From: Escherichia phage ECP2303 | Sequence record: PP261279.1 | Reading direction: 5' to 3' (one strand) | DNA: 64,000 nt | Position numbers and translations under genes: made by a program | Shown here: positions 28,400 through 45,083 of the stretch, one piece after another | How the letters are laid out: each line of letters starts with the position of its first letter | Position numbering within the stretch: the stretch's first letter is position 1 | The notes under the pieces: model-generated | What the model was told of the DNA's origin: nothing | Database searches by the model: none | The model's input: only the letters and a program-made list of their open reading frames with translations

Positions 28400-28669
28400 T
28401 TATCGAGGCACTCGGTGGATGATTCTGACAGTAACCGCATTCTCATTCATCAAGTAAGCATCCACATCTCTGTAAATATAAAACTTCTGCTCGCTATCAA
28501 CAACACAAGCTACTGCCCCTTCAGAGTTGTCTTCAAAGAAGACCACAACTGCATCGCAGCTTAGTTCATGATACGACTCTCGAAGATTTACAGCAAGAGG
28601 GTTGAAATCGTCACGAAGATCTAAAGTATGGGTTGGATTTACACGTTCTACAATTTTAAGTGTATACAT
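28400..28669 (-). CDS. hypothetical protein
   Basis: 89-aa ORF downstream of the tRNA cluster with AAGGAA RBS. Confidence 0.4.
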   Translation of the reverse strand: MYTLKIVERVNPTHTLDLRDDFNPLAVNLRESYHELSCDAVVVFFEDNSEGAVACVVDSEQKFYIYRDVDAYLMNENAVTVRIIHRVPR

Positions 28670-28715: not shown

Positions 28716-28792
28716 TGGTCTCCACGGAGTGATTCGAACACTCGACCTCCTGATCCCAAATCAGGCGCTCTACCAAGCTGAGCTACGCGGAG
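28716..28792 (-). tRNA. tRNA-Pro (anticodon UGG)
   Basis: Hand-folded cloverleaf: acceptor with C1-G72, D-arm GCTCAGCTTGGTAGAGC, anticodon loop UUUGGGA, T-arm GAGTG-TTCGAAT-CACTC, CCA encoded. Confidence 0.7.
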
Positions 28793-28803
28793 TATTTATT
28801 ATT

Positions 28804-28878
28804 TGGTGGCCCTGGGTGGAATTGAACCACCGTCTGGCGATTATGAGTCGCTTGCTTGAACCTTCCAGCTACAGGGCC
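28804..28878 (-). tRNA. tRNA-Met (anticodon CAU; initiator-like loop CUCAUAA)
   Basis: Acceptor GGCCCTG/CAGGGCC, anticodon loop CUCAUAA, T-arm GGTGG-TTCAATT-CCACC, CCA encoded; could alternatively be a lysidine-modified Ile tRNA. Confidence 0.6.
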
Positions 28879-28879
28879 A

Positions 28880-28955
28880 TGGTGCTGATGGCAGGACTTG
28901 AACCTGCAACCTATTGATTACAAATCAATTGCACTGACAATTGTGCTACATCAGC
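28880..28955 (-). tRNA. tRNA-Thr (anticodon UGU)
   Basis: Acceptor GCTGATG/CATCAGC, D-stem GCAC/GTGC, anticodon stem ATTGA/TCAAT with loop UUUGUAA, T-arm GCAGG-TTCAAGT-CCTGC, CCA encoded; 1-nt spacer from tRNA-Met. Confidence 0.7.
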
Positions 28956-28959
28956 AAAA

Positions 28960-29058
28960 GGTGCTAGGTGATGGAATCGAACCACCTATGTATTCAACGA
29001 CTACCTCGTCTATTTTCAGGATTAAAAATCCTCGCCCTTGCCAAAGGGCTTACCTAGC
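28960..29058 (-). tRNA. atypical tRNA-like gene (99 nt; Lys-type UUUUUAA anticodon loop; ~30-nt insertion before the T-arm)
   Basis: Perfect 7-bp acceptor (GCTAGGT/ACCTAGC), D-arm GCCC-TTTGGCAA-GGGC, 4-bp anticodon stem AGGA/TCCT with loop UUUUUAA, extra hairpin ACGA-GGTAG-TCGT, T-arm GGTGG-TTCGATT-CCATC; too long for a canonical type I tRNA and not folding as a standard type II. Confidence 0.35.
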
Positions 29059-29156
29059 GCAATATGTTGACCATGTGGCTAGTCGGCGATGACGACTGTA
29101 ACATTTGATAATCCGGTTCTGCTTCCGGCTTTCGCTTAATTACAAGGTCAACAATG

Positions 29157-29247
29157 TGGCGGAGAGTAATGGAATCGAACCATCATCGAGTTATCCTCAA
29201 CGGGACGGTTTTCAAGACCGCTTGAGCACCATTGCTCCCTACCCTCC
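29157..29247 (-). tRNA. tRNA-Ser (anticodon UGA), type II
   Basis: Anticodon arm GCGGT-CUUGAAA-ACCGT nearly identical to E. coli tRNA-Ser(UGA); long variable arm; T-arm GATGG-TTCGATT-CCATT; CCA encoded; 91 nt. Confidence 0.7.
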
Positions 29248-29361
29248 TTTATAAATTACACTGATAATGACACTGATTTTCGAGCAGTTAGTGACTAGTA
29301 TAAACGACGATAAATATCAATGTCATTATCTGTATGATTTATGCATTTAAAAATATAAATT

Positions 29362-29448
29362 TGGTGGGGAGTGGTGGAGTCGAACCACCCGAGTCGCAAT
29401 GACAATAGATTTACAGTCTACACCGCTACCTCTACGGGATAACTCCCC
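29362..29448 (-). tRNA. tRNA-Tyr (anticodon GUA), type II
   Basis: Anticodon arm GTAGA-CUGUAAA-TCTAT and variable region TGTCATTGCGACTCG resemble E. coli tRNA-Tyr; T-arm GGTGG-TTCGACT-CCACC; CCA encoded; 87 nt. Confidence 0.65.
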
Positions 29449-29452
29449 AATT

Positions 29453-29527
29453 TGGCACCCCGTACTGGACTCGAACCAGTGTCAACGGCTTAGAAGGCCG
29501 CTGCTTTATCCACTAAGCTAACAGGGC
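29453..29527 (-). tRNA. tRNA-Arg (anticodon UCU)
   Basis: Acceptor GCCCTGT/ACGGGGT (two G-U pairs), D-stem GCTT/AAGC, anticodon stem GCGGC/GCCGT with loop CUUCUAA, T-arm ACTGG-TTCGAGT-CCAGT, CCA encoded. Confidence 0.65.
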
Positions 29528-29585
29528 ACTGGGTGGCTTTCTTTTACACCTGAGCCGCCAGAAAAGGTGGGAGACCATGTTTATA

Positions 29586-29614
29586 ATATTACACTGTTAG
29601 GCAAAGTTTGTCAA
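29586..29614 (-). promoter_or_regulatory. sigma70-type promoter for the tRNA cluster
   Basis: Minus-strand TTGACA (29609-29614), 17-nt spacer, TAATAT (29586-29591) preceded by TG; about 55 nt upstream of tRNA-Arg. Confidence 0.5.
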
Positions 29615-44276: not shown

Positions 44277-45083
44277 TTGAGCAAGAAAGAGTCCAACGAC
44301 AAATATTACACAGACCCCGAGTATGCAGAATATCTTGTTGGTAAAGTAAAAGGTAAGTATGGGAATTGTGCATACGTTGAGCCTTCTGCTGGAAAGGGTT
44401 CTTTTTCAAAACTATTTTCAGAGATACTGTCGTATGATTTGGTACCAGATCCTGAATTTGAAGGCCCAACCCCGTGTATTAAGGCAAACTTCTTAGAGGT
44501 GTATCCCAAGGCTGATGTATTCATAGGTAATCCTCCATTCGGCAAAAATTCGTCTTTAGCTTGCAAGTTCTTTAACCACTGTGCATCATTGCTAGAGCCT
44601 GGTGGAGCTATAGCCTTCATCTTGCCACGGACTTTTGAAAAAATATTTTTTGCAAACAAACTGGACATGTCGATGCACCTTATTTATAGCGAAAGGTGCC
44701 CCAAGAACTCGTTTTTACTTAACGGCAAACCTTATGACGTGCCATGTGTTTTCCAAATTTGGGAGAAAAAGGTGTGCAGTAGGGATCCTGTAGAGATCGG
44801 GGAGAATAAGTTATTTTCTTTTAGCACTCCGGATGATTACGACTTCTGTATAAGACGTGTTGGGTATAATGCTGGGAAAGTATTGGGAGAGGATGACCCA
44901 AAATCTGAAGAATCAACATATTTCATAAAATCTTTAGTTGATGGTGTTGACAGAGTGTTTGCTGAGTGCTATTCTTCTTTTCAAGAAGAAGCAGGTAAGA
45001 CTGCTGGAATGAAGAGTATAGGCAAGAAAGAACTACAATACATTTTGGAGACCAGGTATGATCAAAAGCATAGACTTGACTAA
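44277..45083 (+). CDS. DNA N6-adenine methyltransferase
   Basis: Motif I VEPSAGKGSF and motif IV NPPFG; start moved to TTG 44277 (GGAGG RBS) because the track start 44247 lies inside the terminator hairpin. Confidence 0.75.
   Translation: MSKKESNDKYYTDPEYAEYLVGKVKGKYGNCAYVEPSAGKGSFSKLFSEILSYDLVPDPEFEGPTPCIKANFLEVYPKADVFIGNPPFGKNSSLACKFFNHCASLLEPGGAIAFILPRTFEKIFFANKLDMSMHLIYSERCPKNSFLLNGKPYDVPCVFQIWEKKVCSRDPVEIGENKLFSFSTPDDYDFCIRRVGYNAGKVLGEDDPKSEESTYFIKSLVDGVDRVFAECYSSFQEEAGKTAGMKSIGKKELQYILETRYDQKHRLD

Follow-up and report, generated by a model that had tools for sequence, protein, structure and literature searches.

The tRNA gene cluster and its features

The subject of this work is a cluster of tRNA genes on the minus strand of Escherichia phage ECP2303 (PP261279.1), within a stretch of 64,000 nucleotides (nt) that was analysed as a whole and is here called the window; positions are counted from its first letter. 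An ARAGORN scan of the whole window finds seven genes from 28716 to 29527, each of them on the minus strand. Six of these are canonical tRNA genes and the seventh is tRNA-shaped but of unusual build, while two of the spacers between them contain conserved structure. The locus is very probably the tRNA operon of an rV5-like virulent Escherichia coli myophage in which extra structured RNAs are embedded. Its features are listed below from the upstream end of the minus strand.

29586-29614, minus strand: predicted sigma-70-type promoter, TTGACA-N17-TAATAT (10/12 matches)
29453-29527, minus strand: tRNA-Arg(UCU), reads AGA (ARAGORN; Rfam tRNA model, 67.8 bits; CCA encoded)
29362-29448, minus strand: tRNA-Tyr(GUA) with a long variable arm (ARAGORN; CCA encoded; reported for rV5, PMC3606486)
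29251-29342, minus strand: long hairpin filling the Tyr-Ser spacer (29248-29361), with arms at 29251-29280 and 29313-29342 and with covariation
29157-29247, minus strand: tRNA-Ser(UGA), reads UCA (ARAGORN; CCA encoded)
29065-29153, minus strand: helix-closed RNA element in the spacer between tRNA-Ser and the seventh gene (29059-29156), with closing arms at 29142-29153 and 29065-29076 and a core at 29079-29141
28960-29058, minus strand: non-canonical tRNA-shaped gene, here the seventh gene (ARAGORN "tRNA-???"; Rfam tRNA model, 35.5 bits, gathering score 29)
28880-28955, minus strand: tRNA-Thr(UGU), reads ACA (ARAGORN; Rfam tRNA model, 76.7 bits; CCA encoded)
28804-28878, minus strand: tRNA with anticodon CAU, predicted Ile2 type (ARAGORN Met-cat; BASEL annotation tRNA-Ile/ATA; CCA encoded)
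28716-28792, minus strand: tRNA-Pro(UGG), reads CCA (ARAGORN; Rfam tRNA model, 66.4 bits; CCA encoded), the last gene before an open reading frame (ORF) of 89 amino acids

An earlier note, made from the letters of the sequence, had described this locus as a six-tRNA operon with Pro, Met(CAU), Thr, Ser, Tyr and Arg tRNAs on the minus strand. ARAGORN assigns the same anticodons within the same span, and each of the six genes ends in an encoded CCA, as the note had said. The count of six is correct for the canonical genes, but tRNA-shaped genes number seven in all, according to ARAGORN, Rfam and the family alignment described below.

The Rfam tRNA model detects the Thr, Arg, Pro and CAU tRNAs at 60-77 bits (gathering score 29), so that the check by covariance model that the note had proposed bears out these four. 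The long-armed Ser and Tyr tRNAs give only sub-threshold matches to tRNA-Sec after clan competition, and their identification therefore rests on ARAGORN and on published annotation. The anticodon loops of all six have 7 nt, with U33 and a purine at position 37 (CUUCUAA, CUGUAAA, CUUGAAA, UUUGUAA, CUCAUAA and UUUGGGA); together with the cloverleaf found by software or covariance model and the 3′-terminal CCA, these are the features of canonical bacterial-type tRNAs. The intergenic gaps are 4 nt between Arg and Tyr, 11 nt between the CAU gene and Pro, and, in agreement with the earlier note, a single nucleotide between Thr (28880-28955) and the CAU gene (28804-28878), a spacing so tight that endonucleolytic processing is required. 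Stray Rfam matches to Plastid-ycf2, YrlA, mascRNA, mir-458, SNORD26 and permuted tmRNA lie on the tRNAs or antisense to them, below the gathering score, and were set aside as generic tRNA-likeness.

The six-tRNA operon as such is already known. The region of the window is 100% identical to that of Escherichia phage ECP2309, an rV5-like Vequintavirus, dozens of other Vequintavirus (rV5-like) phages match it at 97-99.6% identity, and the Thr-CAU pair is 96.7% identical to that of phage V5. The rV5 genome paper (Kropinski et al., 2013, PMC3606486) lists the same six tRNAs (Arg-AGA, Tyr-TAC, Thr-ACA, Met-ATG, Pro-CCA and Ser), five found with tRNAscan and Ser with ARAGORN, and uses codon usage to argue that they aid phage translation. 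The identity to ECP2309 and this published list make the operon the published rV5 cluster, with nothing new in it. What appears to be added here is a re-assignment of the CAU tRNA to Ile2, a covarying family of non-canonical tRNA-like genes, and an unannotated, apparently structured element common to lambda and P1/P7.

The CAU tRNA is of the Ile2 type

The gene with anticodon CAU was labelled Met in the earlier note, as it is by ARAGORN and in the rV5 paper. An ordinary elongator tRNA-Met would account for the anticodon and for the tRNA-Met label in many GenBank records, and unmodified tRNA-Ile(CAU) does act as a tRNA-Met (PMC1635315). The label is contradicted, however, by the full-length comparison, in which the best E. 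coli match (81.6% identity) is annotated as tRNA-Ile in RefSeq, and by the anticodon stem-loop, which matches that of the E. coli tRNA-Ile(CAU) gene exactly. The acceptor stem, GGCCCUG/CAGGGCC, contains the C4-G69 and C5-G68 pairs, both of which are required by E. coli TilS (PMC1635315). The annotation of BASEL phages, which is based on tRNAscan-SE, gives the gene as tRNA-Ile for the codon ATA, and AUA is enriched in the phage, whereas ATG needs no supplement. An elongator tRNA-Met is, on these grounds, very unlikely. Nor is the tRNA an initiator, because it has G1-C72 instead of the C1xA72 mismatch and C11-G24 instead of A11-U24.

With the CAU tRNA of phage T2 the gene shares 98.7% identity, and with that of Stx phages about 80%; the Thr-CAU pair, its 1-nt spacer included, aligns over its full length with the adjacent pair of T4-like phages at 83-85% identity. 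Judged by its sequence, the CAU tRNA is of the Ile2 type, a predicted lysidine-modified reader of AUA, and should be labelled tRNA-Ile2. This label fits the logic of A-ending rare codons that the phage has in common with T4, and its practical value is that of an annotation correction.

A seventh, tRNA-shaped gene

The seventh gene has a 7-bp acceptor stem, A8, a 6-bp D stem with a 4-nt loop, a normal T arm, an anticodon loop UUUUUAA (anticodon UUU) and a variable region of about 27 nt, and its 3′ end consists of A73 followed by CC-UUUU, with no CCA. Its minimum-energy structure, when it is folded alone, is a cloverleaf (z = -3.7) with a long extra arm. When measured against an ordinary elongator tRNA, it is recognized by the general tRNA model and departs from the ordinary form in that neither the anticodon nor a 7-nt loop with U33 is conserved among its orthologues, in having A8 in place of U8 and in having no CCA in the lineage of the window.

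Homologues were found in Avunavirus, Seunavirus (PVP-SE1, SSE121, GAP31), Mydovirus and Henunavirus, where the homologue is annotated "tRNA-sup(tca)", and in one phage of the Schitoviridae. This last, the N4-like Salmonella phage UTK0002 (L143:305-503), carries a tRNA-Ser(UGA) and, immediately after it, a family member with loop CAUCAAA and U73-CCA; its presence in an N4-like podovirus means that the tRNA-like gene has moved between phage families. A literature lead concerning a "suppressor tRNA" yielded only an unrelated tRNA of a jumbo phage and was dropped. The seventh gene itself is entered in GenBank as tRNA-Lys, tRNA-OTHER, tRNA-TERM, Pseudo or "???", or is unannotated, and many records of this phage group omit the tRNAs altogether, overlay spurious ORFs on this gene, or use a label of this kind for it. 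Coding sequences (CDSs) for hypothetical proteins lie over genes of the family in several records (L007:1579-1698, L137:149-232 and L142:386-587), one of them with a ribosome-binding site; these are probably spurious ORF calls.

The structure of the family is supported by covariation. In an alignment of 15 sequences, covering the 21 pairs of the acceptor, 6-bp D, anticodon and T stems, all 315 of 315 pair-cells hold standard pairs and 9 of the 21 pairs show compensatory double changes. None of 500 shuffles reached the observed covariation score, controls in which the register was slid were 33-52% paired, and the same structure was predicted independently by RNAalifold. The variable arm was left out of the formal pair count because its lengths differ too much to be aligned; pairings read there by eye are CCUCC/GGAGG, CCCCC/GGGGG, GACGA/UCGU and GACGG/CCGU. 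Invariant hallmarks of the family are A8 and two single-stranded junctions, GAAAA after the anticodon stem and AAUACAUAGG before the T stem. The anticodon loops are not conserved: UUUUUAA in the window, UUUAUAA in Av-05, CAUCAAA in Henunavirus, and elsewhere CCAUCCAG and CCCUCAAG; those of Seunavirus and Mydovirus have 6 or 8 nt, and U33 occurs only in the rV5 and Av-05 branch. The 3′ ends are mostly U73-CCA, with A73-CC-U in the window, A73-CA-U in a divergent relative, L125, and U-ACA in Av-05.

The loss of the encoded CCA in the window, L125 and Av-05 compared with most relatives, the different, U-rich loop, and the "Pseudo" label in some records are what would be expected if the gene were, in this lineage, a decaying pseudogene, a functionless relic of a CCA-bearing member of the UCA type. 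The pattern of change speaks against decay, because the gene differs from that of L125 at 2 of 97 positions (2.1%), one of the two changes keeping its pair (U-A to U-G), whereas the immediate flanks differ by 17-50% and include a 13-nt indel; all helices, moreover, are still perfect. E. coli has a CCA-adding enzyme, and several T4 tRNAs have no encoded CCA, so that the loss of this sequence is tolerated in E. coli phages. A pseudogene is accordingly improbable.

The 6-bp D stem with its 4-nt loop and the long variable arm resemble those of tRNA-Sec, and some members of the family have a UCA anticodon. The family differs from tRNA-Sec in having 7/5 rather than 8/5 acceptor/T helices, a discriminator A or U rather than G and, in most members, no U33. 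Scores with the Rfam tRNA-Sec model are 27-39 bits, short of its gathering score of 47, and the loop reads UUU in the window; tRNA-Sec was rejected for the seventh gene.

From these comparisons the seventh gene is predicted to be a conserved and selectively maintained tRNA-shaped RNA of a Vequintavirinae-wide family in which the anticodon loop is unconserved. It is more likely a tRNA mimic or a special-purpose tRNA than an ordinary decoder, and a decoder of the Lys type (UUU with A73) is possible in the lineage of the window.

A predicted RNA element shared with lambda and P7

The gap between tRNA-Ser and the seventh gene is not a plain spacer and appears to be occupied by a conserved structured RNA that consists of a core, present also in lambda and P7, and of a covarying helix that closes it. 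The 63-nt core contains two small hairpins, CCGG-N8-CCGG and GUCG-UCAUCGC-CGAC, and is 85-88% identical to lambda 44866-44934 and P7 72367-72434, in both of which it is unannotated. The lambda copy lies in the late leader, between orf-64 and gene S, and the P7 copy in the tRNA region of that phage, where ARAGORN finds a tRNA-Ser(UGA) (L006:1091-1177; NC_050152 at about 72257-72343) that is missing from the RefSeq annotation and is directly followed by the shared core. The 3′ end of this tRNA is identical to that of tRNA-Ser of the window; in lambda the Ser gene is reduced to a decayed 3′ end. P7 also has, immediately beyond the element on its downstream side, a sub-threshold match to the small RNA STnc100 (L006:1287-1402; 43 bits against 47), which is not seen in lambda or in the window.

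Copies of the core were collected with an exact 18-nt core pattern, which occurs in at least 120 IMG/VR contigs. The core is present in 426 of 5,426 complete E. coli genomes (about 8%), in none of which it carries an annotation; its sites there number 332 on chromosomes and 121 on plasmids. No Rfam match at E<=1 was obtained for the window, lambda or P7 copies of the element, and in a full-text search of the accessible literature no paper with the core sequence was found. Coding by the core was excluded, because an indel of 1 nt between lambda and the window shifts its only short ORF.

Spread of the core beyond coliphages was considered and rejected. The 22 matches among species-representative genomes are all at least 99.7% identical to lambda and lie on low-coverage contigs of unrelated taxa. 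The assemblies concerned (L145-L166) belong to Pseudomonas, Veillonella, Oceanobacillus, Bradyrhizobium and others, and several of the contigs are about 48.4 kb long; they look like contamination with laboratory lambda DNA rather than natural spread. Because the matches in the genome collection consist of lambda contamination only, the natural range of the core would be the coliphage gene pool.

Similarity between the phage groups ends at the edges of the core, and in each group a closing helix abuts it, in five versions unrelated in sequence. These are GUUGUGCUG/CAGCACAAC in lambda, a GUGGUG/CACCAC variant, a 15-bp helix in P7, UGUUGACC/GGUCAACA in the window and GAGGAUCAU/GUGAUCCUU in L125. 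The probability of so long a closing helix by chance is 0.013-0.033 per class and <0.0003 for P7. Five single substitutions were observed within helices, and every one of them yields a G-U or U-G pair if the transcribed strand, and no other, is read. The closing helix and both hairpins are recovered by RNAalifold; all 8 of 8 closing-helix pairs vary and hairpin 2 has one compensatory change, from G-C to U-A, in an alignment in which the exact-pattern sampling left hairpin 1 unable to vary and in which the window-type rows are misaligned.

It may be asked whether these inverted repeats are incidental, the element being no functional RNA at all but a hitch-hiking remnant of a tRNA-Ser trailer acquired by horizontal transfer, or a scar of recombination or of a mobile element at the DNA level. 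Homology between phage groups does stop exactly at the boundaries of the core, as such a scar would predict. The IMG/VR contig L038 (at about 4092), which is prophage-like, combines a P7-type 5′ flank with a lambda-type 3′ flank through a junction inside the core, and so lacks a closing helix; such a junction is evidence for recombination between phage groups in which the core acts as the patch. The flanks of the lambda class, too, are nearly identical, so that invariance there proves little, and the 18-nt pattern used for sampling would have concealed any variation in hairpin 1. A scar or remnant does not, however, readily explain why five sequence-unrelated helices abut the same core, why GUGCUG/CAGCAC and GUGGUG/CACCAC differ by a clean compensatory change, as hairpin 2 does by its own, or why the five helix substitutions all produce G-U or U-G pairs on the transcribed strand alone. 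The orientation of the element relative to transcription is the same in lambda, P7 and the window, coding is ruled out by the indel, and the core is intact in lambda where tRNA-Ser has decayed. An element without function as RNA is rather unlikely.

The hairpin between tRNA-Tyr and tRNA-Ser

Nor is the Tyr-Ser spacer a plain one; the earlier note placed a 10-bp inverted repeat in it. The repeat exists, but its positions were off by 1-2 nt, GATAATGACA being at 29263-29272 and its complement at 29321-29330, and it is part of a much longer hairpin, the 30-nt arms of which are 83% complementary (fold z = -4.6). Compared with L125, two adjacent pairs show compensatory changes (AC/GT to GT/AC) and the loop is nearly invariant. 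The compensatory changes and the fold score mark the spacer as a structured, conserved RNA. The hairpin occurs only in Vequintavirus and has no match to an Rfam family at E<=1; it is probably a processing or stability element.

A promoter-like sequence inside the hairpin, ATGACA-18-TATACT (29326-29297), was rejected. Its -35 hexamer is destroyed in L125, in which the hairpin is kept by the compensatory changes, and the site is therefore read as structure and not as a promoter.

Promoter, limits of the transcription unit and surroundings

The predicted promoter at 29586-29614 lies in the 96-nt gap between the stop codon of a 112-amino-acid ORF (29624) and tRNA-Arg. Its -35 and -10 hexamers and its spacing agree with those of sigma-70 promoters (16-18 nt between hexamers), its function being predicted from this likeness; both hexamers are identical in L125, and the spacer has one substitution. 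In a 2.5-kb region, 8 promoter-like sites were counted, compared with 4.8 +/- 2.2 in shuffles, so that the motif alone is weak evidence. The TTGACA-N17-TAATAT motif named in the earlier note is thus present on the minus strand at 29614-29586, while its description as the single promoter is plausible but unproven, since a better match is found at 30019-29991 on the minus strand (TTGACA-17-TAAAAT with an extended -10 TG, 11/12), upstream of the 112-amino-acid ORF. Transcription from this site could feed into the cluster as well. No terminator-like site was found between it and the cluster, nor between tRNA-Pro and the next ORF, and the transcription unit may for these reasons be longer at both ends. 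A terminator-like match at 29049-29034 consists of the D arm of the seventh gene and a U-rich loop and is probably fortuitous.

The 58-nt leader from the promoter to tRNA-Arg (29528-29585, minus strand) differs from that of L125 by 1 nt, compared with 17-50% for the other non-tRNA stretches, and has no notable fold (z = +0.6). Either constraint or a recent exchange of the block from the promoter to Tyr could account for this conservation.

All neighbouring ORFs have the same orientation as the cluster. Those upstream encode small proteins without assigned function, the 112-amino-acid ORF directly preceding the cluster, and downstream lie the 89-amino-acid ORF of unknown function (28400-28669), two Rz-like spanins and the large terminase. 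In a subgroup of Vequintavirus typified by phage NHEP1 (L004:1551-1680), an insert of about 127 nt is found between tRNA-Arg and tRNA-Tyr (equivalent to 29449-29452 in the window); it is closed by UUCUUUUUAA/UUAAAAAGAA and has a D-arm-like stretch inside, and phages that carry it have a variant tRNA-Tyr that is not called by ARAGORN. In phage VB-EcoM-WM, an annotated CDS of 342 nt takes the place of tRNA-Pro (L003:863-1204). About 18 records of "Campylobacter phage" (MG0656xx), for which C. jejuni is given as the host, match E. coli rV5-like phages over this region at 96-98.5% identity and are likely to be mislabelled or contaminating coliphages.

Possible roles of the cluster

By analogy with general tRNA biology, host RNA polymerase would start at the promoter at 29614-29586 and make a polycistronic precursor carrying, in order, Arg(UCU), Tyr(GUA), the hairpin, Ser(UGA), the helix-closed element, the seventh gene, Thr(UGU), Ile2(CAU) and Pro(UGG). 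Host RNase P would cut each 5′ end, and endonucleases and 3′ exonucleases would trim the six canonical tRNAs to their encoded CCA. Host TilS would presumably convert C34 of the CAU tRNA to lysidine, and this tRNA would then be charged with Ile and read AUA.

The codons read by five of the six tRNAs end in A (AGA, AUA, ACA, UCA and CCA). In the window, AGA makes up 29% of Arg codons, ACA 37% of Thr, CCA 29% of Pro and AUA 19% of Ile; the corresponding values in E. coli O157 are 5.1% for AGA, 14.6% for ACA and 19.1% for CCA (PMC3606486). In this comparison with the host, AGA, ACA and CCA are far commoner in the ORFs of the window. Because the A-ending codons read by five of the tRNAs are far commoner in the phage than in E. 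coli, the cluster most likely sustains the translation of phage genes, and possibly it also replaces host tRNAs lost to defence nucleases.

Several points weigh against this account of the locus. The codon table of the window comes from a crude set of ORFs, and the promoter motif is not statistically exceptional in an AT-rich region. In the lineage of the window, A8 replaces U8 in the seventh gene and CCA is not encoded, which makes the maturation of its product into a chargeable tRNA uncertain, and every step beyond the DNA sequence is inferred. Finally, TAC usage is 46%, close to the 42.7% of the host (PMC3606486), and codon supply therefore does not explain tRNA-Tyr.

The presence of tRNA-Tyr would be accounted for if the set were mainly a means of anti-defence, its task being not the supply of rare codons but the replacement of host tRNAs that anticodon nucleases or other forms of tRNA-targeting immunity have cut, with the seventh gene (Lys-like UUU loop, unusual body) as a nuclease-resistant substitute or decoy. 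In the lineage of the window the seventh gene combines a UUU loop with A73, where its relatives have U73 and other loops, and a UUU anticodon loop together with A73 corresponds to identity elements of E. coli LysRS. An anti-defence role for phage tRNAs is argued in PMC10264068. Against this, the strong enrichment in the phage of codons matching five of the six anticodons has a direct explanation in codon supply. Both ideas could hold together, but anti-defence as the main role is rather unlikely.

Supply of tRNAs for phage translation is the most likely principal role of the canonical genes, and for the two additional RNAs a twofold proposal may be made, as a tentative one that falls somewhat short of an even chance. 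The core with its covarying closing helix (29065-29153) would be an undescribed functional structured RNA that travels with tRNA-Ser(UGA) from one unrelated coliphage to another and has survived alone in the lambda late leader (44866-44934), upstream of the lysis genes; and the seventh gene would belong to a Vequintavirinae-wide set of tRNA mimics, processed in the manner of tRNAs yet taking no part in decoding and acting, for example, as decoys for tRNA-targeting host factors.

Comparison with other phage tRNA clusters

The operon is of less interest than two of the RNAs embedded in it: a tRNA-shaped family with strong covariation and no conserved anticodon, and a small covarying RNA that is present in lambda and in about 8% of complete E. 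coli genomes without annotation or an Rfam family. If functional, both would bear on the use of tRNA-like RNAs by phages beyond codon supply, and both would be cheap to test in tractable systems (lambda, P1 and the rV5-like phages of BASEL).

The cluster of T4 comprises eight tRNAs and the small stable RNAs C and D, and its anticodon set includes Arg UCU, Ile CAU, Thr UGU, Ser UGA and Pro UGG. These five anticodons are shared with the window, the adjacent Thr-CAU dimer of T4-like phages is the same module as Thr-Ile2 of the window, and in both clusters additional small structured RNAs are embedded among the tRNAs. The window differs in having no Gly, Leu or Gln tRNA, in the addition of Tyr and in the encoding of CCA in all six genes, and its extra RNAs have no sequence similarity to anything in T4-like phages.

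The closest relative is the rV5 cluster, which belongs to the same genus, has the same six tRNAs and has been explained by the same codon-usage argument. There is no difference within the six genes; the rV5 paper contains neither the seventh tRNA-shaped gene nor the structured spacers, and takes the CAU tRNA as Met.

With lambda and P7 the window shares a module of tRNA-Ser(UGA) and the 63-nt core, in which the Ser gene is intact in P7 and decayed in lambda, and in lambda and the window phage alike the lysis genes follow a short way downstream of the module. In Stx and other lambdoid phages, the tRNA region between Q and the lysis genes contains a CAU tRNA about 80% identical to that of the window. 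The lambdoid, Stx and P1/P7 phages differ from the window phage in being temperate and in belonging to other families; their other tRNAs and flanks are unrelated, and the sequence of the closing helix is different in each group.

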